DNA from: Bacteroidaceae bacterium
Lineage (GTDB): Bacteria; Bacteroidota; Bacteroidia; Bacteroidales; Bacteroidaceae
Assembly (NCBI GenBank): GCA_017547205.1
Contig: JAFYQH010000057.1
Location: 3,794 to 67,793 of the forward strand
Direction: 5' to 3'
Length of the DNA stretch: 64,000 bases
In this document: positions 22,931 to 37,210 of the stretch, piece after piece
Layout: each line of letters starts with the position of its first letter
Position numbering within the stretch: position 1 is the first letter of the stretch
Position numbers and translations under genes: made by a program
Notes under the pieces: generated by a model
Seen by the model: the letters and a program-made list of their open reading frames with translations, nothing else
What the model was told of the DNA's origin: nothing
Databases searched by the model: none

Positions 22931-24133
22931 TTACTGGTTTACCCGTCCTGGGTACTGCTCAAGCGCTTTCCCTAGAAGGAATATAGCACGCTTGAGGTCG
23001 GCTTTGTCAATGGCATAGGCTATGCGCACTTCGTTCTTGCCGTAACCTTCCTCGCTGTAGAATCCCGACGCAGGAGCCATCATTATGGTTTCGCCTTCGT
23101 ATTCAAAATCAGTAAGACACCATTCACAGAACCTGTCGCTGTTATCAATAGGCAAGCGTGCCACGGTGTAGAAGGCACCCATCGGGATAGGGGAGTAGAC
23201 TCCCGGCAATTTATTCAGTTCATCAACCAGGCAATTACGGCGTTCAATATATTGCTCATAGGTGTTTATTGCATATGAACGTGGTGCATCGATAGATGCC
23301 TCAGCAACAATTTGGCCCAGCAATGGTGGACTCAGTCGTGCCTGGCAGAACTTCATGACAGCCTCGCGTACAGCCTTGTTCTTTGTGATAAGCGCACCTA
23401 TGCGTATTCCGCATTCCGAATAACGTTTTGATACAGAGTCGATAAGAACGACGTTCTCCTCAATCCCTTCCAAGTGGCAAGCCGATATGTACGGTGAACC
23501 GGTATATATGAATTCGCGGTAAACTTCATCTGAGAAGAGGAAAAGATTATGCTTCTTGACAAGGTCGCGTATTCGGTTCATCTCGTTGCGCGTATAAAGA
23601 TACCCGGTAGGGTTGTTCGGGTTACATATGAGTATGCCACGTGTACGCTCGTTTATGAGTTCCTCGAAGCGCTCCATAGGGGGCAGTGCGAAGGACTCGT
23701 CAATCGAAGAACGTATAGGACGTATTACTGCACCTGCAGATATTGCGAATGCCATATAGTTTGCATACGCTGGTTCAGGCACGATAATCTCGTCTCCTGG
23801 GTTAAGGCAAGTGAGGAATGCGAATAGAACGGCTTCGGAACCTCCCGATGTGACAATAATATCCTCGGGCTTCAGTTTTATCTGGTACTGGTCGTAGTAA
23901 CCGACAAGTTTCTCACGCAGTGAAAGGAAACCGTCACTTGGGCTGTATTCAAGAATTTTTTGGTCAAATTTCTTTATTGCTTCAATAGCAACCTCCGGCG
24001 AATCTAAATCCGGTTGGCCAATGTTGAGATGATAAACCTTCAATCCGCGTTCTTTTGCAGCATTGGCAAAAGGAGCCAGCTTGCGTATAGGAGAGGAAGG
24101 CATCAGAACAGCTCTTTCCGATAAATTTGGCAT
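22931..24133 (-). CDS. Class I/II PLP-dependent aminotransferase (aspartate/aromatic type)
   Basis: 400 aa. Contains MPSSPIRKLAPFANAAKERGLKVYHLNIGQPD...NPNNPTG...SVSKRYSECGIRIG (the PLP-Lys context). Confidence 0.85.
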   Translation of the reverse strand: MPNLSERAVLMPSSPIRKLAPFANAAKERGLKVYHLNIGQPDLDSPEVAIEAIKKFDQKILEYSPSDGFLSLREKLVGYYDQYQIKLKPEDIIVTSGGSEAVLFAFLTCLNPGDEIIVPEPAYANYMAFAISAGAVIRPIRSSIDESFALPPMERFEELINERTRGILICNPNNPTGYLYTRNEMNRIRDLVKKHNLFLFSDEVYREFIYTGSPYISACHLEGIEENVVLIDSVSKRYSECGIRIGALITKNKAVREAVMKFCQARLSPPLLGQIVAEASIDAPRSYAINTYEQYIERRNCLVDELNKLPGVYSPIPMGAFYTVARLPIDNSDRFCEWCLTDFEYEGETIMMAPASGFYSEEGYGKNEVRIAYAIDKADLKRAIFLLGKALEQYPGRVNQ

Positions 24134-24159
24134 AATGTTTTTTTCTTCAATTCAGTTTG

Positions 24160-24167
24160 CAAAATTA
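24160..24167 (-). promoter_or_regulatory. -7 promoter box (TAATTTTG on the minus strand) for the aminotransferase gene
   Basis: The reverse complement of caaaatta lies 27 nt upstream of the ATG at 24133. Confidence 0.4.
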
Positions 24168-24192
24168 CTTAAAATGACTGATATTTCAACCA

Positions 24193-24229
24193 TAATGATA
24201 AAAGATTATCTTTAATGATAAAACGATTA
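24193..24229. promoter_or_regulatory. Direct repeat pair in the divergent promoter region (candidate regulator-binding site)
   Basis: taatgataaaagatta (24193-24208) and taatgataaaacgatta (24213-24229), phased 20 bp apart. Confidence 0.3.
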
Positions 24230-24282
24230 GGAACACTTTTAAATGTTTTTTGGCAAATTGTCCTTTTTTACAATATTTTATC

Positions 24283-24290
24283 TATATTTG
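24283..24290 (+). promoter_or_regulatory. -7 promoter box (TATATTTG) for the tubulin-like cassette
   Basis: An exact TAnnTTTG match 62 nt upstream of the ATG at 24352. It is followed by the hairpin aattccg-gttgt-cggaatt (24292-24310). Confidence 0.45.
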
Positions 24291-24351
24291 CAATTCCGGT
24301 TGTCGGAATTTAATCTTCTGTGTTAGCAAAAACAAAAATTAAACATAAACT

Positions 24352-24975
24352 ATGAATGTACTTTGGGAAATACTCCAATTTTCAATAGGTAGCCTCTTTT
24401 GGGGAATATTTATCGCTGCAGTCTGCATGTTGCTTTTTTATTTTGCGATTAAAGGCTGGTGGAAGAATGCTGCTTTCACAGTCGTTACGTACATTGTAGG
24501 TGCATTGCTTTTTGTCCTGTTGTCTGTACAATGCATTATGATTTGCGGAGCTATAAAGATAATCTCTTTTACAGATGTCGTAGAGTACAGGACCAAAGAG
24601 ATTCTGGATTCGCGTCACATGTTCAATGTCGAGGTGTCGAGATCGGAAAGCGAAGACATAGTACAGGAATTGCTTGAAGAGTATCCCATATTCAGGAACT
24701 ATTTCGATTACGGATACTTCGAGGGCTATACGGTTGAGACACTTCCGACTGCAGTTGGTGAAGAGATACGCAGTTACTTGCGTGCGTTCATTGCGCGCCG
24801 TTTGCTTTGGTGTCTGGGATTTGTGGTAGTATCAGCAGTTATAGCAATTAAAACAATTTCGCTAAATAACGGTTCCGGTGGCCGTACCCGTGAACGTTCC
24901 GGGAGGCAGCCAATAGGCAGTGACCGTTCACGACCTCGTATAAGTGGTCATTCACGTACAAGAGGAATGAGATAA
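24352..24975 (+). CDS. Integral membrane protein (3 predicted TM helices) with an Arg-rich C-terminal tail. Cassette gene 1.
   Basis: TM candidates are SLFWGIFIAAVCMLLFYFAI, FTVVTYIVGALLFVLLSVQCIMICGAI and LLWCLGFVVVSAVIAI. The tail is GGRTRERSGRQPIGSDRSRPRISGHSRTRGMR. I recognise no family. Confidence 0.7.
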   Translation: MNVLWEILQFSIGSLFWGIFIAAVCMLLFYFAIKGWWKNAAFTVVTYIVGALLFVLLSVQCIMICGAIKIISFTDVVEYRTKEILDSRHMFNVEVSRSESEDIVQELLEEYPIFRNYFDYGYFEGYTVETLPTAVGEEIRSYLRAFIARRLLWCLGFVVVSAVIAIKTISLNNGSGGRTRERSGRQPIGSDRSRPRISGHSRTRGMR

Positions 24976-25001
24976 ATTAATTAAATATAAAACAACTTAT
25001 T

Positions 25002-28000
25002 ATGGAAACAAATTTTGTTAACGGCAATCACATCCTCGTTGGTTTAGGAGGTACCGGCGGTAAGATTCTGCGTGCGTTCAAGATGCGCATGTTCGAAGAG
25101 TTCCCAACTGCTGATGATCGCAAAAAGCTTCCGGTAGCTTTGTTGTATGTCGATTCTACCGACGAGATGATGCCTAAGGACGGCAGAGCCCGTCCCGATT
25201 TTCGTGTAATGGGACAAGACGCTTCGTTTACAAATAACGAGTTCCTGAATATCAAGGCAGTAGATGTTGAACACATACTTGACCATATCAACAACTATCC
25301 TTCGGTAAAAGGTATCGTTGACAATGTTCAGGCTGTACGCTCGGCAATTGGCTCTTTAGGCCAGGCTGCAGGACAGAAACGTCGTGCCGGCCGTCTCTTG
25401 TTTGCGGCAAATGCCGTAGGGTATGTAAACAGCCTTAAGGATGCCTATGCACGTTGCGAGGTAATTTCTACGAATGCCGAAAAGACCTATATACATATTT
25501 TTGCCGGCCTTTGCGGAGGAACCGGTTCGGGTTCTGTTGTGGATGTTATTCTACAGACACGTAAGACATTCCCCAATGCTAAGATTTCTGTCTATGCAAT
25601 GATTCCGGAGATGAACCTTCCTAAAGCGGATATGGACCAGGGCCGTTACTACCAGAACGGTTATGCGGCAATGAACGAGTTGAACGCTTTGCAGGTTGGC
25701 CGCTGGGTGCCTTGCGATGTAACAGGCGGAGGTCCTGCAAACCTGTATAACGACCGTGTCAAGGGTGTTGCCGACGGTTTGACTATCTACAGCAATGTAA
25801 ATGAGAATGGTCTCACTATAAATTCACTCGAAGAACTGCCGAAGATTGTAAGCGACTATATGTTTGCCCGTATATTCTTCATAAACGAAGAGGACCAGGT
25901 TAACGGTGATATTATTCGTTCTTACAATTTCGAGAATATGGACGATTTCGCATTGGAATATGACGAGGCTGCAAATGCAGGCCCAGATGGCCGTATTCCT
26001 GTGGCACGTACCAAGAAAATCAATTCATTCGGTATCAAGCGAGTGATGTATCCCGAACTCCGAGTGCTCAAGCACATCACATATACTATAGGCGAGAGCA
26101 TATTGTACCAGTTCAAATACAACAACTGGCGCGAGAACCTCGGATATGTTGACGAGGAGCGCAACAAGGACTATCGCAAAGAGTATTTCAATAAGGAGAA
26201 CCTTGCGAAATGGATGCTCGATGACCAGCATCTGACAATGGAGGTAAAGGTACTTGAATCCGATGCCGATTACCCAGGCTTCAACGACTATTGGCATGAC
26301 AAGGCTATCGGCTATGCCGAAGACGCCAAGAAGGCCGACTGTCCGCTCAACGAACTCGACACCATAATGGGTGAGTTCTATAGCAAGCATTTCCGCGAGG
26401 AGGGTGTTGAGGCATTCTTCCAGGGCAAGGAGAGGGTGATTCCCGAAATTGCACGTGAGATACGCCATGGCATAGAGGTAGAGCTATTCGAGAAATGGAA
26501 GCTAGGCGATGTTTCTATCGTTGAACTGCAGAAGGTTTCAAAACTCTTGCTTGAGCGTTTGGGAGAGATGCGCGAGGAACTCGAAACAAAAGAAAAAGAG
26601 GAGAAGCTCAATTATGATGCCTGCGAAGAGGACCGCAAGGCGAATGTCGAGGAGTGGAGCCGCTTGGGCATATTGCAGCGTATGGTTGGTGTTGGTGCAC
26701 GCCGTTATGCCGACCATCAAGGTATTCTCACCGACTATTACACCTCAAAGACAATGCTTTGTGCTTGGGAGTTCGCTAAGAAACTCTTGGCAAAAGTATT
26801 TGTAGAGATAGGCAAGATGGATGCCGACATATCTTCTTTCGGACAGAAGATAAACGAGGCTATCGATGAGACTGAGCGTTTGGTTACAGCACAGAAGAAG
26901 GTGAACAAGGGACTTGAGGATATGAAGGGTGCGATAATCGAAGTCAGCGAAGAGGAGGCTATGAGCGAGTTCGAGAAGGAACTCAAGATAGACAAGGTCG
27001 ATATGCCGAACATTGCCCGTCAGTTGCGTGAGTCTATTTTGCCTATCGGTGACTTTATCAATTTCGGTAATTTGGCAAACAGCATAAGCATCGATGACAT
27101 TAAGGATGCATTTGATGTGAAATTGTCCGAGATTGTAAAAATCAAGCACGACGAGAAGGCCGATAGCGATAGCAAGGTGCTGGGCTTGAATATTCTTACA
27201 CAGTTGCAGCAGAAGCTGAAGACAGATGATGATATAAAGGCTTTTGCTTCCAAGATTGTAAGTCAGAGTGGTGTATATCTGCGTTTGAACAACGACCAGA
27301 TTCAGTTGCATCTACGCAATAATGAGGGTAACCTCAGCCCTACAAACCCGGCAAGCATAAACAAGAAGGCTATTCTTGTCTCTATTCCGTCACCCGATGA
27401 GAATGAGGGTCTAAAGAAATTTGCCGATAAGCTTGAGGCTGCATTCAAGAACTCATTCAACCAGAGTACAGCCCGCACAACAATAACTGTTAACCGAAAG
27501 AGTCCACGTAAGGACGAACTTTCGATTATCACAGTATCATACTGTTTCCCGGTGCGTGGAATAGAATGGATGGTTCCTTATAGAGAGCGTTACAACAGAT
27601 TCCTGAATACAGGCAATCCTGCTACAGACAGGAGCAATGCCATTCTGTTGCACAGCGAAGGCGATGGAACTCAGTTGCCGTCACTCTTTGCTGTAGATAA
27701 CGCCGAAGAGATTGCTGCTAAGGCTGCGCAGGCAACAATGCAGACGGGCGTAAATGTACAACAACCTACAACCGGATTTGCGGCACCTCCACCAATGCCG
27801 GGTAATGCACCGGTTCCTCCTCCTGTTGCAGCTCCTATGCCTGATATAAAACTATTTATAGCAGTAGGCGGTCAGCAGTACGGTCCTTACAATATGGAAC
27901 AGTGCAGGCAGATGGTGCAGGGTGGTCAGTTGACAGCTCAAAGTACTGTTTGGATGGAGGGAATGCCATCTTGGACTCCTGCAGGCCAGGTTCCGGCTTT

Positions 28001-28088
28001 GCAGGCATTGTTTGCCCCCCCGGCTGCGGCACCAGGTTTGCCTCCGTTGCCTCCTATGGGTGGTCCGACACCTCCGCCAATGATGTGA
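25002..28088 (+). CDS. Giant tubulin/FtsZ-superfamily GTPase (Tubulin_2-like) with coiled-coil, Pro-rich and GYF_2-like C-terminal modules. Cassette gene 2.
   Basis: HILVGLGGTGGKIL (aa 10-23) is a T1-like Gly loop. FAGLCGGTGSGSVVDV (aa 167-182, nt 25515-25535) carries the exact GGTGSG tubulin signature core. A charged helical region spans roughly aa 500-720. PPPMPGNAPVPPPVAAPMP is followed by KLFIAVGGQQYGPYNMEQCRQMVQGGQLTAQSTVWMEGMPSWTPAGQVPALQALF (nt ~27849-28013, GYF_2-like). The protein ends in the tail PGLPPLPPMGGPTPPPMM. Confidence 0.75.
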   Translation: METNFVNGNHILVGLGGTGGKILRAFKMRMFEEFPTADDRKKLPVALLYVDSTDEMMPKDGRARPDFRVMGQDASFTNNEFLNIKAVDVEHILDHINNYPSVKGIVDNVQAVRSAIGSLGQAAGQKRRAGRLLFAANAVGYVNSLKDAYARCEVISTNAEKTYIHIFAGLCGGTGSGSVVDVILQTRKTFPNAKISVYAMIPEMNLPKADMDQGRYYQNGYAAMNELNALQVGRWVPCDVTGGGPANLYNDRVKGVADGLTIYSNVNENGLTINSLEELPKIVSDYMFARIFFINEEDQVNGDIIRSYNFENMDDFALEYDEAANAGPDGRIPVARTKKINSFGIKRVMYPELRVLKHITYTIGESILYQFKYNNWRENLGYVDEERNKDYRKEYFNKENLAKWMLDDQHLTMEVKVLESDADYPGFNDYWHDKAIGYAEDAKKADCPLNELDTIMGEFYSKHFREEGVEAFFQGKERVIPEIAREIRHGIEVELFEKWKLGDVSIVELQKVSKLLLERLGEMREELETKEKEEKLNYDACEEDRKANVEEWSRLGILQRMVGVGARRYADHQGILTDYYTSKTMLCAWEFAKKLLAKVFVEIGKMDADISSFGQKINEAIDETERLVTAQKKVNKGLEDMKGAIIEVSEEEAMSEFEKELKIDKVDMPNIARQLRESILPIGDFINFGNLANSISIDDIKDAFDVKLSEIVKIKHDEKADSDSKVLGLNILTQLQQKLKTDDDIKAFASKIVSQSGVYLRLNNDQIQLHLRNNEGNLSPTNPASINKKAILVSIPSPDENEGLKKFADKLEAAFKNSFNQSTARTTITVNRKSPRKDELSIITVSYCFPVRGIEWMVPYRERYNRFLNTGNPATDRSNAILLHSEGDGTQLPSLFAVDNAEEIAAKAAQATMQTGVNVQQPTTGFAAPPPMPGNAPVPPPVAAPMPDIKLFIAVGGQQYGPYNMEQCRQMVQGGQLTAQSTVWMEGMPSWTPAGQVPALQALFAPPAAAPGLPPLPPMGGPTPPPMM

Positions 28089-28127
28089 TAATAAGATTTT
28101 AGATAACAATTCAAATAAGAAATAAAA

Positions 28128-28751
28128 ATGGCAAGTAACAGTAACGATAGAATTCGTTTCAGATATGGAATGTGTTTGAACGATGGTTGTTCAAAAGCAA
28201 AGGCAAAAGAGGTGCAGCAGATTCCGGCACGTAAGGAATTTGTTTGTGCCGAGTGTGGAAAGGCATTGCGCGAATGCCCTCCTCCCCCAAAAGGTGGCAA
28301 TACAAAGTTAATAATAGCGATTGTAGCCATTATTGCAGTATTGGCGGGTGGAGCTGCATTATGGTATATGACTTCAGAAAAACCGACACAAACGACAACA
28401 CATGCTGGAGAGGGTGGTGGAAAATCGGATACTACTATAGTAGCAGATACTTTAACTCAGAAGCCACAAACACCTGCTAAAGATGGTGGCAAGAAGAAGG
28501 CTCCCGTTGTTAATCAGGTTGTTACTAAGGATTTTGGCTATGCAGTTTACAAAGGCCGCATGAAGAACGGTAAGATGCACGACGATAATGGCGTGCTTAC
28601 ATTCAAGAAGGCACACATTATAGAGCCACGTGATATCAAACAGCGTACAGCGCAGCCTGGCGAAAGAGTTACCGGAATTTTTGAGGACGGACACCTTGTA
28701 ACAGGTACCTGGCATAAAAATGATGGCAACAAAGAATCAATAATTCCCTAA
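28128..28751 (+). CDS. Zn-ribbon / PPPP motif / single TM / MORN-like repeat protein. Cassette gene 3.
   Basis: The segment CLNDGC...(19 aa)...CAECG forms a 4-Cys ribbon. It is followed by ECPPPPKGG (nt 28278-28298) and the TM helix LIIAIVAIIAVLAGGAALWYM. The C-terminus has YKGRMKNGKMHDDNGVLTF and GIFEDGHLVTGTWHKNDG, which are MORN-like. Confidence 0.65.
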   Translation: MASNSNDRIRFRYGMCLNDGCSKAKAKEVQQIPARKEFVCAECGKALRECPPPPKGGNTKLIIAIVAIIAVLAGGAALWYMTSEKPTQTTTHAGEGGGKSDTTIVADTLTQKPQTPAKDGGKKKAPVVNQVVTKDFGYAVYKGRMKNGKMHDDNGVLTFKKAHIIEPRDIKQRTAQPGERVTGIFEDGHLVTGTWHKNDGNKESIIP

Positions 28752-28756
28752 CACTT

Positions 28757-29743
28757 GTGAATAATCTGTTTAAAACAGTATATTGTTCTCTATTCATTAT
28801 GCTACTCCCGCTATCTTTGTGGGGGCAGCATAATGGCATTTTGGGTGACAGGTTACGTAACGAGGCACTGAAGGCTTCGGAAGAGATTCCCGCAATATCG
28901 GTGCTCTTTAATTTCGCTGAACGTTATTTGGGAATGCTGCGGGACATGGACAATGCCGAACGTTCATCTCGCATGCAGCGCGATGATGTACGCATATTAA
29001 AGGGAAGTGTAGAGGCTCTTGCCCGGATAAACGATAAGACATCTTGGGCTTTTGCCGAGAAGAATGACAGGTATAACCTGCTCATATCCAATTCAGGAAC
29101 TCCTTTGATAGAGATGTCTGTCCCGGCATCTTGTCAGTTGCTTACAGGAAAGAATCTCAAGGAACTTGAACGTGATTTCTTTGCCGGGCTTGACAATTAT
29201 TCGTTCAGAGTTGTCGATACGTTGTCGGCCGATGTTTCGGAATGCGAACATCTCCACGGAAACTATTACCTTAAACCAGGTGAGTCGTACCAGATTAAAG
29301 AAATAAACAGCAACCTTTATCTGGAAAATGTTGACAATAGCCTGCAATTGGTATTCGATGTCGATCATCCGGCTGAGAGTTGTCACAATCTTCTTCTATT
29401 GGAGACATGCCCCGGAGATGTGTTGTTGCAGCTAGTTGTACGTAAATACGGATTAAAGAAAGAAGAACGTACTTTACCTCTGCGGCTATGGCTATCGTAT
29501 CTGAAGGTACTCGGATGCAATATATACATAGGAGTAGAAGAGATGAATGCCGACCATATCAGAGTTGCATTCTTTGCAGTCAATACAATAATGAGGTTCA
29601 ATCACATAATGAATGCCGAAGTACCATACTCAATCTTCAAGGATGGTAAGGGGACTGTAAAAGGTGACCTCAATACGTTTATTCCAACTCACAATATATC
29701 GGCACTGTTTGATGAACTGAATCAACATTCCGGCGGTAAGTGA
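28757..29743 (+). CDS. Signal-peptide protein of unknown family. Cassette gene 4.
   Basis: GTG start 5 nt after the previous stop. Signal peptide MNNLFKTVYCSLFIMLLPLSLWGQ. No recognisable motifs. Confidence 0.65.
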   Translation: MNNLFKTVYCSLFIMLLPLSLWGQHNGILGDRLRNEALKASEEIPAISVLFNFAERYLGMLRDMDNAERSSRMQRDDVRILKGSVEALARINDKTSWAFAEKNDRYNLLISNSGTPLIEMSVPASCQLLTGKNLKELERDFFAGLDNYSFRVVDTLSADVSECEHLHGNYYLKPGESYQIKEINSNLYLENVDNSLQLVFDVDHPAESCHNLLLLETCPGDVLLQLVVRKYGLKKEERTLPLRLWLSYLKVLGCNIYIGVEEMNADHIRVAFFAVNTIMRFNHIMNAEVPYSIFKDGKGTVKGDLNTFIPTHNISALFDELNQHSGGK

Positions 29744-29772
29744 CAGATAGATACGGTTAAAAAACAATAATT

Positions 29773-30501
29773 ATGAAAAAGTCTTTTATACTATTTATTT
29801 TAGGTATCAGTTTTGCTTGTGTTATTAATGCACAGAATAATGACGATACAAAAGCACAGATAAACAAAATCAAACGCTCTACGCAGTATCTTTCGGCCGA
29901 GGCTACAATGGCAACGGAAGAGGAGGCATTGAACTTGGCAAGAGAGCTGCTAGTCGCAGAGATAAACGATTGGGTTGCTTCGAAAAGAAAAGGCGCAGAA
30001 GTCAAGCAGGTTGTTCTACAGGATATAAATTCATGTGCCCAGCAGATGGATATGAAACGAGGTGTAAAGACCCGTGCATTTCTCTATGTAAAGAAGAAAG
30101 ATATAGTGCTGATATATGGTGAAGGCCAGATTGTGCTGAACAATGAGGAGAGTGGAGTTGACTTGCAGCCCCTATCGGAGATATCCACCCCGTTGCAGAA
30201 TGATGTCGCCGTTGTCGAAAATGCCGAAGATACATCTTTTAAGAAGATATTGGGTGCAAAGACAATGACAGACTTGAAACCGATTTTTGCTTCATTGAAG
30301 AATGACGGCAAGATAAAATATGGCAGCTACAATTCAGATATAGTTCTGGAAGAGTGTTATTTGCTGTTCTACACACGCGAAGGCAATATAAAGTCCATTG
30401 TCCGCAAGAACAGAGACAATTACACTGATGCAAAGGGCAAAAAGACAATTAACCTGTCCGACTTCAGCGGTTGTGGTGCATATTGGTTCATTTTACAGTA
30501 A
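29773..30501 (+). CDS. Signal-peptide protein of unknown family. Cassette gene 5.
   Basis: Signal peptide MKKSFILFILGISFACVINAQ. Gap to the upstream gene is 29 nt. Confidence 0.7.
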   Translation: MKKSFILFILGISFACVINAQNNDDTKAQINKIKRSTQYLSAEATMATEEEALNLARELLVAEINDWVASKRKGAEVKQVVLQDINSCAQQMDMKRGVKTRAFLYVKKKDIVLIYGEGQIVLNNEESGVDLQPLSEISTPLQNDVAVVENAEDTSFKKILGAKTMTDLKPIFASLKNDGKIKYGSYNSDIVLEECYLLFYTREGNIKSIVRKNRDNYTDAKGKKTINLSDFSGCGAYWFILQ

Positions 30502-30519
30502 AAGTATAAATATAATATT

Positions 30520-31518
30520 ATGAGAAATTTATTACGTTGGCTGACGGTTGCCGTTTGTTTTTCTGCAATAGTTACCGTCAATGCACAGGAAGGAGTTAAA
30601 TTGGAGATTGTAGATGGTCTGTATAATGATGCTCTGAAAACAAAAATGGAGAGGTCGGCAAGCCGGTTGCTTACCGAGATAAATGCTGCATACAACGATA
30701 ACCGCGCATTGAACCTGGTAAACATGGGTCTTTCCGACGGTGCTGTCAGCGGTCTTGCAGCCCTTTGGGAGAATGTTCATTTCTATTGCGACGACAGTGA
30801 GGTAGTGCAGTCTTGTCTTACTGTGGGCAATACTTATCAGGTGCGCCAAATTCCATTAATGATCAAGCCTCAAGGCGAGAGCCTCGATGATGAATATCAG
30901 GAGGCTGTCATAAACTTTGACGCTACGGGCAAAATAACACGTTTCAATTTTACGCTTAGCACAAATGTCTATCAGAATGTGATGAAGAAGGGCAAGACCG
31001 TAACAGAAGTCAGCCGTCGTCAACAGATTCTCTCCTATGTTGAGCAGTTCCGTACAGCATATAATGAAAAGGATATTGTTTTCCTGGAGAATATCTTTAG
31101 TGAGGATGCTCTTATCATCACTGGTACTGTAACAAAAGTCAGGAAGACTGACGGTGTTGGTATATCATACAATAAGGTAACATATAAGAAACAGAACAAA
31201 CAGCAGTATATCGCTAACCTGAAAAGAAGCTTTGCGAGCAACAAGTGGATAAATGTGCTCTTTGAGGATGTAAAGGTTGTCAAGCATCCGAATCCTATGA
31301 TGGAAGGCTTCTATGGTGTAACAGTCCGTCAGAAGTACTCAAACAGCCGTGGTTACAGCGACGATGGCTATCTTTTCCTATTGTGGGATTTCCGCGACAA
31401 GGACAATGTTCAGATACACGTACGTACATGGCAACCTTACTGGATGGACGACAATAAGACACAGCCTATTGCAAAAGAAGATGTCTTTACACCTGGGGAT
31501 TTTGTAATTGACCTATAA
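30520..31518 (+). CDS. Signal-peptide protein whose C-terminal half is possibly NTF2/SnoaL-like. Cassette gene 6.
   Basis: Signal peptide MRNLLRWLTVAVCFSAIVTVNAQ. The C-terminal pattern is ILSYVEQFRTAYNEKDIVFLENIFSEDALIITG...YIANLKRSF...FYGVTVRQKY...GYLFLLWDF. Gap is 18 nt. Confidence 0.65.
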   Translation: MRNLLRWLTVAVCFSAIVTVNAQEGVKLEIVDGLYNDALKTKMERSASRLLTEINAAYNDNRALNLVNMGLSDGAVSGLAALWENVHFYCDDSEVVQSCLTVGNTYQVRQIPLMIKPQGESLDDEYQEAVINFDATGKITRFNFTLSTNVYQNVMKKGKTVTEVSRRQQILSYVEQFRTAYNEKDIVFLENIFSEDALIITGTVTKVRKTDGVGISYNKVTYKKQNKQQYIANLKRSFASNKWINVLFEDVKVVKHPNPMMEGFYGVTVRQKYSNSRGYSDDGYLFLLWDFRDKDNVQIHVRTWQPYWMDDNKTQPIAKEDVFTPGDFVIDL

Positions 31519-31529
31519 TTCAAATAGTT

Positions 31530-32927
31530 ATGAAGGTGTTGGAAAAGATAATCCTTTTATCGCTCTTGTTATTCATTGCTGTTGTAAAGATAAACGCACA
31601 GGACTACAATACAGTCCTTGTGTCACCGGTAGAGAATAAGGACAAGACAGCCCCGGCTGACGGAGTTATCATTATAATTACATCGAACTGCGACAATCTC
31701 ATAATGTCGCATAGTGTAGGAATAGAGAAGGGTGTAAAGAGTATCGAAAGCAACGGACGCTACAAATACACTATAGAATATACATTCCCCGAGGATTATG
31801 ATGATGATTTCATGAAGACGCAATTGCAGTTGCGCTTGCCTATAGGCCAGGAAACAGTTCCGCTCACAATGTACAAGGGAAAGGTGTATGAAGGTGAATA
31901 CAATGAACGTACAAGCATTGCTGTAAACCGTGAGAAGGATGCCGTTTATCCATATGCCAAATTCGCTAAGGTTACTTTCATGTCGGCATTTACCAACCTT
32001 ACCATATCGTGCAACGGTATCGTATGTTTCGAAAACGGCAAGCCAGTTTCGTTGAGCAACTGCAACATGAAGGCATCTACCGAAACGGTTGGCGAACAGA
32101 AGGACTATGCAATTGTATTCAACCTCGCTCCCGAGACCAAGGGCAAAAACGATGTCACTGGCAATGCTATATTCAAGATAAGCTCTCCCGATTTCAGCAG
32201 TGTTGAAGTCAAACAGGATGAATTGGTTGGCCGTACCTCCTATCTGTTTATGGTGGTAAGGGCAAACGGTGAAACATACGAAGAGGTGCTTGCTATTGCC
32301 CAGGAAAAGGAATCGGGTTATGAGAAAGAGACTACAAGTGCATATTTTGCGGCTGTTGCCGATGCATACGAAGCTGCAAGCAAGCATTTGCAGTGCCCTG
32401 TTGACAAGAAAGAAACTCATCAGATACAGGCAAACAAGTTCAAGAAGATACGTAACCACACAAATGCCATAAACCAGGCCGACGAGCGTTGGCGCAAGGT
32501 CGCTGCAGATGAGGGTTTCGAATCGTCCAATGTGTGGAAATACCTGAATTTTGAACGTAAGCGTCTGCGTGCGTTGATTGAGGAGTTCCCCGAAATGGAG
32601 TATTATACCAAACTGTTGAGTGAGATAGATGCCGAATATATGAAGCACCCCTCATCTACAGTTGAATATCCGGTTATCAAGGGAACCGTTTCTGCTGGTG
32701 ACGGTTGGATATTCCCAGTGGATATAGATATATACGCATCGGATGTATATATAGACGGCATCGGTGATGTGAAGAAACACAACCTTAAGAAAGTTGGTAC
32801 AGTGCAAGGTGGCAAATATTCGATAACATTGCGCGAAAAATGCAAATATCTCTATTTCCAGGGAGAGAGCCGTTCGCATTCTATCGAGTACGTGACACAG
32901 ACACTTGACGTGGAGCTAGTTCCATGA
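31530..32927 (+). CDS. Signal-peptide protein of unknown family (beta-rich N-terminus, helical middle, beta-rich C-terminus). Cassette gene 7.
   Basis: Signal peptide MKVLEKIILLSLLLFIAVVKINAQ. Gap is 11 nt. Confidence 0.7.
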   Translation: MKVLEKIILLSLLLFIAVVKINAQDYNTVLVSPVENKDKTAPADGVIIIITSNCDNLIMSHSVGIEKGVKSIESNGRYKYTIEYTFPEDYDDDFMKTQLQLRLPIGQETVPLTMYKGKVYEGEYNERTSIAVNREKDAVYPYAKFAKVTFMSAFTNLTISCNGIVCFENGKPVSLSNCNMKASTETVGEQKDYAIVFNLAPETKGKNDVTGNAIFKISSPDFSSVEVKQDELVGRTSYLFMVVRANGETYEEVLAIAQEKESGYEKETTSAYFAAVADAYEAASKHLQCPVDKKETHQIQANKFKKIRNHTNAINQADERWRKVAADEGFESSNVWKYLNFERKRLRALIEEFPEMEYYTKLLSEIDAEYMKHPSSTVEYPVIKGTVSAGDGWIFPVDIDIYASDVYIDGIGDVKKHNLKKVGTVQGGKYSITLREKCKYLYFQGESRSHSIEYVTQTLDVELVP

Positions 32928-32968
32928 TTAAACATAACATTATTAGTATAATATTAAATTAAAAAACT

Positions 32969-33766
32969 ATGAAGACATTGACAAAAGTGATGGTTGCAAT
33001 GCTTGCAGTCATGATGATGGTACCTATGAGTGCAGAAGCTTCGAGTCAGAAGAAAAAGAAAGAAAAGAAAAAATTTGAGTGGGTTATGCCCGAACTGACA
33101 GGAAATGAAAGCTTTGACCAGTATTTGTTAAGCTGTGACACCATTTGGAACAGGACTAAGGTCGTTGCCGAGAATATGCACACCTATACATTCAAGACCG
33201 ACACATTGCGTGGAATTAATGGTTCAGATTATGTTATGGCCCACATGGAAGATGCTTCAGGTGCGTATCTTACTCGCGGTGCAGTTACATGGCAGCTGAT
33301 TGAAGCAATCAAGGAAGGTGCCGGCATTGTACTCGATATTGCAAACATCGGTGTCCTGACAGCTGCGGCAACAACAGCATTGCCGGGTCTGGGCGTTAAG
33401 GCACTGTCTTACGGCAAGTATCTTAAATCGGGACCGAAAATCATTCAAGGTTGCGGTTCTGAGATTAAGGAGATTGCAGCAGTACGCCGTCAGCAATACC
33501 AGCAGTGGAAGTCTATGAAAGAGGGTGCTGTCGATGCGTCAACACTAGGTATATGGAACGAGGAGCAGCTGAAGTCTCTCTCCAAGTGCTGTTTCATCAC
33601 TAAGCTCGACACTACCACAAGCCGTGAGCTTACTCCCGAAGAGGTTGCTGCTCAGGAGGCTCTTATGGGCGGTTTGAACATATCTGTCGCACCAGAGGTG
33701 TTAGGCCAGACACTCGATGCCGAGCCAGAGGACCTCGATGCCCTCATGGAAGCCGAGGGTGTTTGA
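32969..33766 (+). CDS. Signal-peptide protein with a poly-Lys stretch and an acidic tail. Cassette gene 8.
   Basis: MKTLTKVMVAMLAVMMMVPMSAEASSQKKKKEKKKFEW... There is an internal hydrophobic segment, GIVLDIANIGVLTAAATTALPGLGV. The acidic C-terminus is AEPEDLDALMEAEGV. Confidence 0.7.
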   Translation: MKTLTKVMVAMLAVMMMVPMSAEASSQKKKKEKKKFEWVMPELTGNESFDQYLLSCDTIWNRTKVVAENMHTYTFKTDTLRGINGSDYVMAHMEDASGAYLTRGAVTWQLIEAIKEGAGIVLDIANIGVLTAAATTALPGLGVKALSYGKYLKSGPKIIQGCGSEIKEIAAVRRQQYQQWKSMKEGAVDASTLGIWNEEQLKSLSKCCFITKLDTTTSRELTPEEVAAQEALMGGLNISVAPEVLGQTLDAEPEDLDALMEAEGV

Positions 33767-33780
33767 TAACCCCAGTGCAC

Positions 33781-33832
33781 TATATAAAATATTTGGAACA
33801 GCAGAACTCTGCTGTTCCAAATATTTTATATA
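33781..33832 (+). terminator. Strong hairpin (24-bp perfect stem) after cassette gene 8
   Basis: tatataaaatatttggaacagcag-aact-ctgctgttccaaatattttatata. The GC-rich core is followed by an A/U-rich tract. Confidence 0.7.
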
Positions 33833-33845
33833 ACTTTACCGTTAA

Positions 33846-35585
33846 ATGAAACCTATTGTTTGTGTTGCTATGAATAGAGCATTTATCCTTTTTATACTGT
33901 CACTGTTTTCCTTTTCAATATATGCCCAGAACATACGTGTGGAGTCTTTCGGCATTGTCATGAACGATGCCACAGCATCTGCTTCTCCTGTACTGGATGC
34001 CAATGATGACCCTTGTGCTCTCATACGTCTTGTAACCACCGACAAGGAATATGAAATAGACGGCAACATCAAACGTGTTGAGAAGACGGGCGAGCTGCTC
34101 TTCTATGTTCCTTCCGGTACCCGTCAAGTGACAATACGCCACAGCAGCTTAGGTGTCCTGAACTACTCCTTTGAGCAGCGTCTGCAGTCAAAGGCCACAT
34201 ACAGAATGGTTCTGCCGTCGAACACCATCGTAATACATAGTGAGGACAGAGGCGGCCATTATCTTGTGATGAGGATTGTCCCGGCCAATGCCGTAGTGCA
34301 TATAGACGGAATGCTGGAGAATGTGAGAGATGGCCTGTTGCAGAAATTCCTCCCTTATGGCATGCATACCTATCGTGTAGAAGCTCCATTATACAGCATG
34401 GAGGAGGGGAGTGTGGAGATAGGGCGTGAGAAGAAACAACTGGACATATCTCTGAAACCCAATTTTGCCAATGTTACACTAAAGGCACAAGGTGCTGAGA
34501 TAAAAGTGAACAGCGAGTCCAAAGGCAACGGCTCATGGAGCGGCCGCCTCAATCCCGGAACATATCTGGTGGAAACTGTAAAGCCCGGATACCGCAACGC
34601 TTCATATACTCTTGTCGTTGTTAGCGGAGAGGACAGAAGTGTAGACTTGCCGATGCCTACACCCATGTACGCATCGCTCGATGTAAGCAGTAATGCAGTG
34701 AATGGCAGTGTCTATGTCGATGGTAAGCATATTGGCAACACCCCTGACATATTCAAGGTACTTGCCGGGAAGCATACCGTTGAATTGCGCGCAAACGGTT
34801 ATGAATCGAAGAGCTATACAGTTGAACTGGCCGAGGGAGAAGCTAAAAAATTATTTGCAGAACTTAAGGAAACTGCCAAATCTACATATGGAGGACAGGC
34901 AACAACCGCTTCATCAAGTAGTAATTGCACTATCAATGGCCACGAATATGTTGATTTGGGTTTGCCAAGCGGACTTAAATGGGCAACCTGCAATGTAGGT
35001 GCAAATGCGTCAGAAGAGTATGGCAATTATTATGCCTGGGGCGAGACAAAAACCAAGAAAAGTTATAATACAGGTAATAGCAAAACCTGTGGAGAAAGCA
35101 ATGTCCCTTCTGATATAAGCGGAATCCATGCATACGATGCAGCCCTTAAGAACTGGGGCGGCAGTTGGCGTATGCCCACATGGGAAGAATTTAAGGAACT
35201 GCTGAAATATTGTACCTGGACCTGGGCATCCCGTAACGGCAAGAATGGCTATGAGGTCAAGAGCAAGAAGAATGGTAACAGCATCTTTCTGCCTGCGGCC
35301 GGTTACCGCTGTGATGGGTGGTCCAACTACGATGGGGCTCGCGGTTGCTATTGGAGTGCTACGCCTGTCGAGAGCAATCCCATATTAAACATAATTTGGG
35401 GTAGTTCCTCGAGTGCGTACAGCCTTTTCTTCGATAATAGTGGCAAACTCATCGATATTGCCGAGGACCACATGTATTGGCACATACGTTACCACGGTCT
35501 AAGTGTTCGCCCAGTCCTCGAAGAGGAGAAAGCTATATTAATTGAATTTGAGAAGCGAGACCGAAACCAGGAGCAGCTACAATGA
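33846..35585 (+). CDS. PEGA-repeat protein with a C-terminal DUF1566 / Fibrobacter-paralogous-type domain
   Basis: The signal peptide is best read from the alternative start at 33870 (MNRAFILFILSLFSFSIYAQ). PEGA-like repeats include VYVDGKHIGNTPDIFKVLAGKHTVELRANGYESKSYTVEL. The C-terminus has INGHEYVDLGLPSGLKWATCNVGA...YYAWGE...WRMPTWEEFKELL...IFLPAAGYR...YWSATP. Confidence 0.75.
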   Translation: MKPIVCVAMNRAFILFILSLFSFSIYAQNIRVESFGIVMNDATASASPVLDANDDPCALIRLVTTDKEYEIDGNIKRVEKTGELLFYVPSGTRQVTIRHSSLGVLNYSFEQRLQSKATYRMVLPSNTIVIHSEDRGGHYLVMRIVPANAVVHIDGMLENVRDGLLQKFLPYGMHTYRVEAPLYSMEEGSVEIGREKKQLDISLKPNFANVTLKAQGAEIKVNSESKGNGSWSGRLNPGTYLVETVKPGYRNASYTLVVVSGEDRSVDLPMPTPMYASLDVSSNAVNGSVYVDGKHIGNTPDIFKVLAGKHTVELRANGYESKSYTVELAEGEAKKLFAELKETAKSTYGGQATTASSSSNCTINGHEYVDLGLPSGLKWATCNVGANASEEYGNYYAWGETKTKKSYNTGNSKTCGESNVPSDISGIHAYDAALKNWGGSWRMPTWEEFKELLKYCTWTWASRNGKNGYEVKSKKNGNSIFLPAAGYRCDGWSNYDGARGCYWSATPVESNPILNIIWGSSSSAYSLFFDNSGKLIDIAEDHMYWHIRYHGLSVRPVLEEEKAILIEFEKRDRNQEQLQ

Positions 35586-35689
35586 TGATTACGCTGAAAT
35601 ATTATACCTGGACCTGGGAAAGCTATCCCCGCAAGCGGTGCAAAAAATCAGTAAAACCCACTACTCCAAATAAAACCACTTTTGAATGA
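35582..35689 (+). pseudogene. Possible remnant of a paralogous DUF1566-type gene
   Basis: Positions 35593-35619 (gctgaaatattatacctggacctggg) match 35201-35227, inside the upstream CDS, at 26 of 27 nt. The remnant reads MMITLKYYTWTWESYPRKRC... for 35 codons. Confidence 0.3.
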
Positions 35690-35700
35690 TAATAAATATT

Positions 35701-35903
35701 ATGTTTAATATGGTTTTGATATTTGCACGCTATCCTGGATTCTCGTACATTTTTCGAAATTTCCGTAAGCAGGTGAAAATACATAATTAATAATTAAACA
35801 TGTCTTATGTTTAATATGGTTTTGATATTTGCACACAATCCTGGATTACGTACAGTTTTTCGAAATTTTCGTAAGCAGGTGATATTTGCACACAACCTGA
35901 ATT
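35701..35903. repeat. Tandem direct repeat (two 76-bp copies with a 106-bp period, plus a partial third copy)
   Basis: Copy 1 (35701-35776) is atgtttaatatggttttgatatttgcacgctatcctggattctcgtacatttttcgaaatttccgtaagcaggtga. Copy 2 (35807-35882) is about 90% identical. gatatttgcacacaacctgaatt (35881-35903) repeats the core a third time. Confidence 0.85.
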
Positions 35904-35930
35904 TTTTGTAACTTGCATAATAAATTTCAT

Positions 35931-36260
35931 ATGACTATGAACGATAACAGAATTCTTAGACTTATTGACTCCTCGTACAAGGAGTGTGAGGTTACCGGTA
36001 GAGATATGGGTGGAGATTACACATTTGAGATTCCTGTAGCAGACCTTGCCCTTGGATATGTTGAGTGGACTTCTGATTTTAGGCCAAACCATGGTGTCAA
36101 CATTGTTGAAATTGGTGAGAAATATATAAAGCTCGAAGTTATATCTGTTTCGCGCCAGTCCAGAGATTCCTATACACTCTATGTTGGAGACAAAAAGAGC
36201 ATGAATTATATGTTCGGTGAATGGAGTTTTGGCTATACGATATCTGTTGAGAATAGATAA
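35931..36260 (+). CDS. Small hypothetical protein, apparently translationally coupled to the downstream Dus gene
   Basis: MTMNDNRILRLIDSSYKECEVTGRDMGGDYTFEIP... Its stop, TAA at 36258-36260, overlaps the ATG at 36260-36262 (TAATG). The ORF-track start at 35913 is a TTG. Confidence 0.5.
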   Translation: MTMNDNRILRLIDSSYKECEVTGRDMGGDYTFEIPVADLALGYVEWTSDFRPNHGVNIVEIGEKYIKLEVISVSRQSRDSYTLYVGDKKSMNYMFGEWSFGYTISVENR

Positions 36261-37210
36261 TGAATCAACAGTATGCCATGAAAATATATTCAGCACCTCT
36301 TCAGGGATTTACTGAGGCTGTTTGGCGTAATGTGCATTCAGGGGTTTTTGGCGGCATCGATGGCTACTATACGCCCTTCCTGCGTTATGAGCATGGCGAG
36401 ATACGCAGCAAGGATGTGCGTGACATTGAGCGCAAGAATAATTCCGTGGAGAATCTTGTTCCGCAGATAATCGTTGCAACTCCCGATGAGATGCACCCGC
36501 TCATGGAACTGTTAGTCAATGAAGGCTACAGCCGTGTGGATATAAACATGGGCTGTTCTTTCCCCCTGCAGATGCGCAAGAAACATGGTGCCGGGCTGCT
36601 CCCCTATCCCCATATGGTCGCATCGATACTCAAGGCCACAGCCGATTATCCCGGGTTCAAGTTTTCGGTTAAGATGCGTCTGGGGTGTGAAAGCAAGGAC
36701 GAATGGCGCGCCTTGCTGCCAATCTTGAACGATACGCCTTTGGAGCATATAACCATGCATCCACGCCTTGGTGTCGAGCAATACAAGAAACCGGTTGATA
36801 TTGACGCTTTTGCCGAGTTTTATTTGGCTTGCACTCATCCAGTGATATATAATGGCGACTTGCTAACTTTTGGCGATATCAAGCGTGTGGAAAATGATTT
36901 CCCCGGCCTTAAAGGCATAATGCTCGGACGGGGACTACTTGCAAACCCGGCTCTTGGTATTGAATACCATAACAGCCGTGCAATGGCCGATGATGAACTG
37001 TGTGCTTTGGTGCAACGCATGCACGATACCATGTTCCGCGAACTGTCACCACGCCTGCAGGGTAATACACAATTCCTTACAAAGATGAAACCCTATTGGG
37101 AGTACCTTCTTCCTACCCTTCCAAAGCGTTTGCGCAAGCCCATTCTCAAATCAACGACAATAGAGAAATACCAGATTGCAGTGGCGAATGCATTGCGAGG
37201 AGAGTGGTAA
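36260..37210 (+). CDS. tRNA-dihydrouridine synthase family protein
   Basis: Contains APLQGFTEAVWRNV...VDINMGCSFP...KMRLG...HPRLGVEQYKKP, the Dus TIM-barrel pattern with a catalytic Cys context. Confidence 0.8.
   Translation: MNQQYAMKIYSAPLQGFTEAVWRNVHSGVFGGIDGYYTPFLRYEHGEIRSKDVRDIERKNNSVENLVPQIIVATPDEMHPLMELLVNEGYSRVDINMGCSFPLQMRKKHGAGLLPYPHMVASILKATADYPGFKFSVKMRLGCESKDEWRALLPILNDTPLEHITMHPRLGVEQYKKPVDIDAFAEFYLACTHPVIYNGDLLTFGDIKRVENDFPGLKGIMLGRGLLANPALGIEYHNSRAMADDELCALVQRMHDTMFRELSPRLQGNTQFLTKMKPYWEYLLPTLPKRLRKPILKSTTIEKYQIAVANALRGEW

Follow-up and report, generated by a model that had tools for sequence, protein, structure and literature searches.

Organization of the gene cassette

In a 64,000-nucleotide stretch of DNA from a Bacteroidaceae bacterium (assembly GCA_017547205.1, contig JAFYQH010000057.1), hereafter called the window, nine consecutive open reading frames (ORFs) occupy positions 24352 to 35585 of the plus strand. 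All coordinates refer to this window. The genes are, in order, g1, FtsZl1, g3, five genes for exported proteins that we name S1 to S5, and g9. The present work concerns the five exported proteins, their conserved association with one another, and their relation to the cytoplasmic proteins encoded upstream.

The first cassette gene, g1 (24352-24975), encodes a polytopic inner-membrane protein with a basic tail, as judged from its hydrophobic segments, and it is kept 5' of FtsZl1 in most related loci. The second gene (25002-28088) encodes the cytoplasmic tubulin-like GTPase FtsZl1, a protein of 1028 amino acids (aa) with Pfam matches to Tubulin_2 (1.4e-43) and, at its C terminus, to GYF_2 (3.8e-16). 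It is followed by g3 (28128-28751), which was recognized as a bitopic adaptor of 207 aa from its transmembrane (TM) segment and an ectodomain profile. Next come the five genes that were recognized by their signal peptides, namely S1 (28757-29743, 328 aa, with a GTG start), S2 (29773-30501, 242 aa), S3 (30520-31518, 332 aa), S4 (31530-32927, 465 aa), and S5 (32969-33766, 265 aa). The last gene, g9 (33846-35585), encodes an exported protein that resembles PEGA, CarboxypepD_reg, and Lcl_C proteins in Pfam.

From g3 through S5 the intergenic gaps measure 5, 29, 18, 11, and 41 nt. These short gaps, which leave no space for internal promoters, support the view that S1-S5 and the upstream tubulin-like gene belong to one tight unit. 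A single putative -7 promoter box of the Bacteroidetes type (TATATTTG) was read from the sequence at 24284-24291 on the plus strand, about 60 nt 5' of g1. A perfect hairpin of 24 bp with AT-rich arms lies between S5 and g9 (33781-33832, plus strand), and hairpins were seen only 3' of S5. It is probably where the transcription unit ends or is attenuated; having no T-run, it was missed by the consensus terminator scan. Consensus scans of the cassette for sigma-70 promoters and terminators performed no better than on shuffled sequence, and a two-box Bacteroidetes promoter pattern gave zero matches. An earlier note on this DNA had argued from gaps of 5-41 nt for co-translation of the exported proteins with the upstream genes, and both the gaps and the position of the hairpin agree with a single unit.

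The divergent control region in front of g1 contains one imperfect inverted repeat, the sole one there (24157-24175 / 24275-24293; 19 nt, 79% complementary). Its arms are simply the two -7 boxes (TAnnTTTG), one belonging to g1 and one to the aminotransferase gene that is transcribed away from it, and the repeat does not convince as a border of an invertible promoter.

Export signals and shared properties of S1-S5

Signal peptides and lipoboxes were judged by a heuristic scan of N-termini. All five proteins have one or two K/R residues within the first eight positions, then a hydrophobic core and a small-x-small cleavage motif. The predicted cleavage sites are LWG|Q in S1, INA|Q in S2, VNA|Q in S3, INA|Q in S4, and AEA|S in S5. 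All five conform to the Bacteroidetes "Q-rule" pattern of Sec export and signal peptidase I cleavage, with Q at +1 in S1-S4 and S in S5. By the same scan, a signal-peptide-like N-terminus is kept in at least 98% of the homologues in every family. No lipobox with a conserved Cys was found; a lipobox-like Cys occurs in only 0-5 members per family, and Cys16 of S2 is not conserved in the S2 alignment.

Searches of Pfam and NCBIfam (E<=0.1) detected no C-terminal sorting domain of the type IX secretion system (T9SS; Por_Secre_tail / TIGR04183 type) in S1-S5. Pfam, NCBIfam, and PADLOC gave no match for S1, S2, S4, and S5, and no enzyme or defence family for any of the five. Profile searches against all sequences of the Protein Data Bank (PDB) returned nothing below E 0.009. 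Features of an outer-membrane beta-barrel were likewise not found: the models of S1 and S2 are alpha+beta and none of S1-S5 ends in F, W, or Y, with S3-S5 being judged by sequence only. The five proteins show no detectable relation to one another. A common origin of S1, S2, and S3 was ruled out by hhalign probabilities of 1-13%, and a kinship of S3 with S4 was ruled out by comparison as well.

The earlier note had described five secreted proteins, encoded back to back and each with a signal peptide, and this is what lies at 28757-33766 on the plus strand. Its further statements that the proteins are mutually unrelated, and that they have no lipobox, T9SS tail, or recognisable catalytic motif, are in agreement with the homology comparisons and with the lipobox, Pfam, NCBIfam, and PADLOC scans. 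The term "ORFans" used there is wrong, as all five have homologues in dozens of genomes. It had also considered an outer-membrane assembly, which is unsupported because none of the five resembles a beta-barrel, a lipoprotein, or a T9SS cargo protein.

Synteny and co-distribution

Related loci, designated L with a number, comprise 80 loci that were fetched via FtsZl1 from contigs of one genome per species, plus loci from genomes that do not have FtsZl1. The 80 loci are mostly from the Prevotella group, Paludibacteraceae, and Muribaculaceae, and cultured carriers among the loci include Xylanibacter brevis ATCC 19188, X. muris, and Prevotella sp. MGM1. ORFs in the related loci were called by a longest-ORF rule, which may have set some starts, and called a few genes, wrongly. 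The genome samples are draws of related species, and counts are to be read as descriptive, not as statistical tests.

By tblastn and clustering, the order g3-S1-S2-S3 was recovered in nearly every locus that was long enough. Matches to profile hidden Markov models (HMMs) were then counted in 66 loci, namely those in which S3 is present and followed by 3 kb or more of sequence. The g3 ectodomain was present in all 66, S1 in 64, S2 in 63, S3 in 66, an S4-type gene in 63 (including proteins with only the S4 N-domain in common), and an S5-type gene in 44. The full order from the g3 ectodomain through S1, S2, S3, S4, and S5 occurs in 42 of these 66 loci.

A family sample of 300 genomes, drawn evenly from the family of the window, contained FtsZl1 in 33, the g3 ectodomain in 40, S1 in 51, S2 in 41, full-length S3 in 52, and the C-domain of S3 in 97 genomes. 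FtsZl1 spans 13 of 35 genera and falls into three clades with at least 54%, 36-38%, and 28-31% identity to the window protein. In all 33 FtsZl1 genomes, the g3 ectodomain, S1, S2, and S3 are contiguous, on the same strand, and just 3' of FtsZl1. Among 300 genomes from across the rest of Bacteroidales, full-length FtsZl1 was found in three, each with S1 and S3 directly downstream. S1 and S3 therefore lie 3' of FtsZl1 on the same strand in 36/36 FtsZl1-positive Bacteroidales genomes sampled. Checked across related genomes, the genes travel together and are not distributed independently.

A common ectodomain on exchangeable cytoplasmic heads

In the adaptor g3, one TM helix (residues 55-83) joins a cytoplasmic Zn-ribbon, formed by the Cys-rich N-terminus, to a MORN-like ectodomain of about 80 aa at the C-terminus (~28494-28748). 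The profile of this ectodomain detected the domain directly 5' of the S module in each of the 40 family genomes that carry it, and the sole other match was marginal (E 7e-6) and in a genome that has a normal copy too.

S1 and S3 are also present in some genomes without FtsZl1, and those loci were fetched for their architecture. In several of them, here called sister operons, the position of FtsZl1 and g3 is taken by other proteins. In L093, L096, and L098 a Hanks Ser/Thr kinase is encoded with FHA and PP2C genes 5' of it, and the FHA domain is fused to a trypsin-like peptidase domain in L093 and L096. The kinase is followed by S1-S2-S3 in L093 and L098, and by a truncated S1 and S3 in L096. 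A kinase also precedes an S2-S3 fusion and an S4N-type protein in L095 and L099, and in L099 an FHA gene lies 5' of the kinase gene. L097 encodes a Zn-ribbon-TPR/Sel1 protein and then the complete S1-S2-S3-S4-S5 set, and L089 and L100 a short TM protein and then S1-S3-S4b-S5b.

In L089, L093, and L095-L100 the protein just 5' of the module ends in a g3-type ectodomain, which follows one TM helix and a low-complexity linker. Pairwise comparison of the g3 C-terminus with the ectodomain of a head protein gave E 2e-6, and the ectodomain profile matched the L093 kinase at 1.1e-26, as strongly as a true g3. One sister-operon kinase scores above the cut-off of Pfam MORN. As read from these alignments, the ectodomain plus the S module is the constant unit, and the predicted cytoplasmic part is exchangeable, being a Zn-ribbon beside FtsZl1 in one version and a Hanks Ser/Thr kinase in the other. 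That this unit stays constant beneath varied heads is the strongest argument available for a function of the exported proteins together with the ectodomain, and probably exerted on it. The idea that the module is tied to a cytoplasmic GTPase stands as far as the co-distribution with FtsZl1 is concerned; the tie is not exclusive, since Ser/Thr kinases are coupled to the module in the sister operons.

Two loci show further variation. L094 (G534:C10, 6980-12415), from a 4.9-Mb genome of the family, has two tandem FtsZl1 paralogues of 774 and 1032 aa, then g3 and a complete S1-S5 set. In L093 (G536:C20, 11854-15450) the S4-like gene is followed by a 1198-aa protein with 13 BACON repeats and then a PEGA/DUF1566-type protein, which suggests that the module can be extended by surface-type domains that bind glycans.

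The proposed core subunits S1, S2, and S3

S1 belongs to a large family. A profile search of 1.84 billion cluster representatives yielded 1,176 representatives of the family, and nearly all of the 150 matches listed are proteins of about 310-400 aa. None of 56 aligned members has a Pfam match, and a word-index homologue search with S1 returned 33 proteins with no annotation or informative name. The AlphaFold2 (AF2) model of S1 (predicted local distance difference test, pLDDT, 87; predicted template modelling score, pTM, 0.83) has an N-terminal helical region followed by repeated units of a helix plus a curved sheet. Foldseek searches of this model against PDB and BFVD gave no fold match at E<0.005 and none over the full length. 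The partial matches are weak and comprise NTF2-like cones, which recur, PCNA-like and double-hot-dog-like domains, and some isomerases and cyclases. S1 is not placed in the NTF2-like, PCNA-like, or double-hot-dog family. On the basis of its confident model, we treat S1 as a new alpha+beta fold arrangement with no PDB match. Near-invariant residues include F53, E55, R56, Y57, G83, W110, H283, and N313; five of them (E55, R56, Y57, H283, N313) are polar and may serve an enzymatic or ligand-binding role. In the family sample, S1 lies just 5' of full-length S3 wherever coordinates were compared, and we propose that it is a core subunit of the module.

S2 sits between S1 and S3 in 33/33 FtsZl1 genomes of the family sample. 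Its AF2 model (pLDDT 82) shows two domains, an N-domain at ~22-122 and an alpha/beta C-domain at 154-241, with a disordered linker (127-151) between them. Foldseek aligned the N-domain with domain 1 of Helicobacter pylori HP1454 (prob 1.0, 78 columns, rmsd 3.6, E 0.15) and with Lpp20 (TMt 0.44, prob 0.44). Pfam LPP20 (PF02169) matched none of 48 S2 family members at E<=0.01, and hhalign of the S2 alignment against an LPP20-bearing fusion gave a probability of 40%. On the model, the N-domain appears to be LPP20/SHS2-like. The earlier note had called for Foldseek as a check that might reveal ordinary enzymes or binding proteins. Run on the S1 and S2 models, it gave no full-length match for S1 and the LPP20-like N-domain of S2, and it led to no enzyme assignment. 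S2 was also considered as the subunit that binds the g3 ectodomain, and this candidate was dropped, as L089 and L100 have the ectodomain and no S2.

The S2 N-domain profile also recognizes the N-terminal part of fusion proteins in which the S3 C-domain follows. S2N-S3 fusions are proteins of 429-502 aa, and fusions of an S2N-like/LPP20 part to S3C are widespread proteins of about 620 aa. Among the fusions, that of L091 (~620 aa) is the only one that matches Pfam LPP20, with 27.7 bits and above the cut-off of 25.9.

S3 is the most conserved part of the module, with dN/dS (ratio of nonsynonymous to synonymous substitution rates) of 0.03-0.05. It consists of an unassigned N-domain and a C-terminal domain (~150-320) that appears to be NTF2-like. 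The window protein scores 22.4 bits with Pfam Cds6_C, below the cut-off of 27. Across the S3 family, DUF4440 matched 24/51 and Cds6_C 22/51 members at E<=0.01, with a best value of 6.2e-7. A literature search on "Cds6" found nothing on the protein family behind Pfam Cds6_C.

The S3C domain has a wider distribution. In about a third of the family genomes it ends exported proteins of ~340 or ~620 aa (L091, L092, L101-L120), the longer of which have an LPP20-like or WG-repeat N-terminal part. Proteins with the S4 N-domain adjoin S3C-domain proteins in 16/22 loci outside the FtsZl1 and kinase operons. This S3C/S4N gene pair, in about a third of the family genomes, appears to be uncharacterised.

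The properties of these proteins bear on whether they form an assembly at all. The five might instead act independently in the periplasm, for example as binding proteins or chaperones, with S1 perhaps an enzyme not yet recognised; they would then be co-regulated with FtsZl1 for the same physiological condition and never enter a complex. The five are not mutually homologous, S1 has near-invariant E, R, Y, H, and N residues, and its sub-domain matches in Foldseek include isomerases and cyclases. NTF2-like domains often bind small molecules or act as enzymes, and some loci of other types contain only a sub-set of the five. However, gene order is fixed down to 28% FtsZl1 identity, S2 and S3 are found fused, S3C and S4N pair recurrently, and the module always has the MORN-like ectodomain beside it. 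Proteins that are merely co-regulated seldom show so constant a pattern, and we consider this explanation unlikely.

The proposed distal subunits S4 and S5, and g9

S4 has an N-terminal beta-domain, which is expanded in the window protein, a helical middle part, and a C-terminal beta-domain. The S4 position is occupied by two sequence families, S4 and S4b, with a common C-terminal half (hhalign 99%), and S4b members show weak CarboxypepD_reg and TPR matches. The S4 N-domain is homologous to the N-domain of g9 (hhalign 98%), and PEGA-type proteins take the S4 position in other loci. Given its place within the 12-kb island described below, g9 may be an alternative distal subunit.

S5 has a poly-Lys run after the signal peptide, then a hydrophobic segment of small residues (120-138) and a Lys-rich helix; its acidic tail closes with Pro-Glu, which is invariant. 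The poly-Lys run, the internal hydrophobic segment, and the acidic tail had already been pointed out, and all are conserved across the S5 family alignment. Over the hydrophobic segment S5 is related to the S5b family (hhalign 96.7%), which is a clear glycine-zipper family with Pfam Gly-zipper_YMGG in 6/11 members. Glycine-zipper profiles (PF13441, PF13488, PF05433) did not match S5 itself.

These distal proteins could also indicate a membrane-remodelling or vesicle apparatus. The inner membrane would then be deformed by FtsZl1, while remodelling of peptidoglycan and of outer-membrane contacts would fall to the exported proteins, for instance in the formation of outer-membrane vesicles or of a PEGA/BACON surface layer. 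Membrane remodelling was proposed generally for FtsZl1 operons by Makarova and Koonin (PMC2875224). The cassette combines two inner-membrane proteins with exported proteins, it has PEGA, CarboxypepD_reg, and BACON proteins at distal positions, and S5 contributes a glycine-zipper-like, membrane-active segment. Lpp20-family proteins of H. pylori are reported to occur in vesicles. Against this, searches of the cassette with Pfam and NCBIfam turned up no domain of the OmpA-like, vWA, lipid-transfer, or peptidoglycan-hydrolase kind. The occurrence of the same module with kinases and without FtsZl1 argues for signalling or scaffolding over a mechanical role driven by the GTPase. Remodelling is largely a narrower version of the periplasmic assembly favoured below, with which it partly overlaps, and it has no extra direct support. 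As a separate explanation it seems to us rather doubtful.

Selection and the genomic island

Compared with the nearest relative, L006, all five S genes have dN/dS of 0.05-0.22, and they are therefore real, constrained genes. Synonymous divergence (dS) from L006 is uneven along 25002-33766, with 0.076 in FtsZl1 and 0.33-0.51 in g3, S1, S3, and S4. This suggests either recombination between lineages inside the cassette or an unusually strong codon constraint on FtsZl1.

The cassette is flanked on the left by an aminotransferase gene (22931-24133, minus strand) and on the right by dus (36260-37210, plus strand). In the window the two are 12.1 kb apart (24134-36259, from g1 to a small-ORF region before dus). 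In congeners without the cassette the same genes, in the same divergent orientation, are separated by 786 bp (G004) or 220 bp (G464). As these spacings indicate, the 12.1-kb block is an insertion/deletion that was gained or lost in one piece. No integrase or other mobile-element gene was detected when the cassette proteins and the genes flanking them most closely were scanned with Pfam and PADLOC.

An island of this kind may serve defence or surface exclusion. The exported proteins would sense or block the entry of phages or other invaders, and FtsZl1 or the kinase would execute the response. The 12-kb indel between housekeeping genes fits such a role, as does the patchy distribution (3 of 16-24 species of the genus, 13/35 genera). 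Exported parts evolve faster than the GTPase (in the same loci, identity is 22-31% for S1 and 61-83% for FtsZl1), distal subunits are swapped between loci, and synonymous divergence along the operon looks mosaic. The Ser/Thr kinase, FHA, PP2C, and trypsin-like peptidase domains of the sister operons occur in some defence systems too. However, PADLOC-DB 2.0 matches none of the nine proteins, the Cmr6 match of FtsZl1 being meaningless (E 0.008, 13 bits), and Pfam and NCBIfam show no nuclease, NADase, protease, or other effector in the window cassette. There are no neighbouring defence or mobile-element genes, the surroundings are housekeeping genes and not a defence hotspot, and dN/dS is well below 1. 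A defence function is, in our judgement, quite improbable.

Proposed role of the exported proteins

The explanation that we prefer, with modest confidence, is that S1-S5 together build a scaffold or sensor assembly in the periplasm, which is part of a trans-envelope system and docks on the g3 ectodomain. It builds on the export signals, the strict synteny and co-distribution, the purifying selection, the domain assignments, the fusions, and the common ectodomain on different heads, all of which can be read from the genomes. From these we infer physical contacts, a subunit that binds the ectodomain, a direction of signalling, and a cellular process that is served. The domain types that the proteins appear to have (LPP20/SHS2-like, NTF2-like, beta-sandwich, and glycine zipper) are typical of envelope scaffold and binding proteins, not of enzymes. 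The S2-S3 fusions and the recurrent S3C/S4N pair fit subunits of one assembly.

In the proposed arrangement, S3 and S1, usually with S2, would form a conserved core with the MORN-like ectodomain of the bitopic g3 as its docking site. On the cytoplasmic side, the Zn-ribbon of g3 would couple this assembly to the FtsZl1-GYF tubulin-like GTPase. S4 and S5 would be the more variable, exchangeable parts, distal in the assembly and proximal to the membrane. S4 has its N-terminal beta-domain in common with other interchangeable exported proteins of PEGA and BACON types. S5 probably resides in or on the membrane by its glycine-zipper-like segment and poly-Lys patch. The assembly might report the state or the position of the envelope to the cytoplasmic polymer, or it might fix the position of the polymer from outside. 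In the sister operons the same periplasmic module would report to a Hanks Ser/Thr kinase.

Several observations weigh against such an assembly. The core can work without g3-type docking, since in L086-L088 and L090 a secreted TPR/Sel1 protein is followed by S1-S3-S4b and no protein with a MORN-like ectodomain is encoded. S2 is absent from some variants (L089, L100), and its link to LPP20, made on the structural model, rests on a Foldseek match with E=0.15 and no Pfam LPP20 match in S2. The invariant polar residues of S1 could form an active or ligand-binding site. In addition, synteny and fusions point to a functional link and not necessarily to a stable complex. The suggestion that the five form a multi-subunit assembly and are not enzymes is favoured by co-distribution, by scaffold- and binding-type domains, and by fusions; the near-invariant polar residues of S1 leave its second half less secure.

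A broader version of the periplasmic assembly is possible, and we put it forward tentatively. It would be a plug-and-play system of trans-envelope signalling in gut Bacteroidales, in which the module on the MORN-like ectodomain controls interchangeable heads through one TM helix. The heads would be either a polymer of a tubulin-superfamily GTPase or a Hanks kinase with FHA and PP2C. If true, this would be the first tubulin/FtsZ-superfamily assembly wired to a periplasmic sensor complex and the first testable function for FtsZl1.

Comparison with known systems

FtsZl1 was predicted in 2010 (Makarova and Koonin, Biol Direct 5:33), and its operons were found to encode lineage-specific membrane and exported proteins (PMC2875224). 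Typical partners in these operons are a vWA protein, a protein kinase, a diverged P-loop GTPase, and an OmpA-like protein, and the functions given for FtsZl1 are all predictions (PMC2875224). The window cassette resembles these operons in being headed by a Tubulin_2 protein and otherwise consisting mostly of membrane and exported proteins with no recognised domain. Membership is indicated by S1 and S3, which are in a predicted operon with FtsZl1 in 36/36 genomes. Kinases are recurrent partners in both cases; here they are alternative heads of the same module. The cassette differs in having no vWA, OmpA-like, P-loop GTPase, or kinase gene, kinases being found only in the sister operons, in which they stand in for FtsZl1. 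The 2010 tables contain a single true Bacteroidales case, BACCAC_02057 of B. caccae; its neighbours are different, and the S1-S5 module and the MORN-like adaptor are therefore undescribed in that paper. A literature search found no paper that characterises FtsZl1, its partners, or this cassette.

The LPP20 relatives FlgP, Lpp20, and HP1454 are exported, lie close to the outer membrane, and associate with themselves or with partner proteins (PMC12222027, PMC11756786). The model of the S2 N-domain superposes on HP1454 domain 1 and on Lpp20, which belong to the LPP20/FlgP/FlgT/HP1454 group (PF02169; PDB 5ok8, 4kzs). The SHS2-like fold of this group has a helix packed on a three-stranded sheet. 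S2 differs from this group in that it has no lipobox, no Pfam LPP20 match, and an extra C-domain, and no flagellar genes were seen in the cassette.

A second comparison is with sensor Ser/Thr kinases. PknB with its PASTA domains is a eukaryote-like Ser/Thr kinase with an extracytoplasmic sensor domain. The Hanks kinase of the sister operons similarly has one TM helix and a g3-type ectodomain, with FHA and PP2C beside it and the S module 3' of it, an arrangement like that of a trans-membrane sensor kinase that has partners in the periplasm. However, the window cassette has no kinase, and the ectodomain is MORN-like and not PASTA. To our knowledge, a dedicated multi-protein set of periplasmic partners is not a feature of sensor Ser/Thr kinases.

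The Agl-Glt machinery of Myxococcus, a trans-envelope assembly for gliding and focal adhesion, contains GltJ, a bitopic inner-membrane protein that directs a Zn-ribbon and a GYF domain toward cytoplasmic GTPase and cytoskeletal partners, and it has dedicated periplasmic subunits. The GYF region of the window FtsZl1 weakly matches GltJ (NCBIfam NF033761, E 1.1e-5), but the score is 24.8 bits against a cut-off of 450, the match covers the GYF domain only, and in the window the Zn-ribbon and GYF are on separate proteins. S1-S5 match no Glt protein in NCBIfam, and the cassette encodes no AglRQS motor or outer-membrane barrel.

In the RodZ-MreB system a bitopic adaptor links a cytoskeletal filament to the periplasm. 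Like RodZ, g3 is a small bitopic protein with a cytoplasmic fold of nucleic-acid-binding type and a periplasmic domain, encoded beside an NTPase of a cytoskeletal superfamily. The two differ in that RodZ has no sequence relationship with g3, and we know of no dedicated operon of exported partners for RodZ.

The likenesses to GltJ/Agl-Glt, RodZ-MreB, sensor kinases, and LPP20/FlgP are best regarded as functional analogies or similarities at the level of domains, not as membership. What is new is the modular periplasmic partner set of an FtsZl1-type envelope cassette, which was previously undescribed. Roughly one in ten species sampled from the Prevotella/Bacteroides family carries the cassette, cultured strains included. 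Several sizeable families without an assigned domain, S1 among them, are now defined. The conserved partners, together with an ectodomain common to kinases, turn hypothetical proteins into concrete, testable hypotheses.

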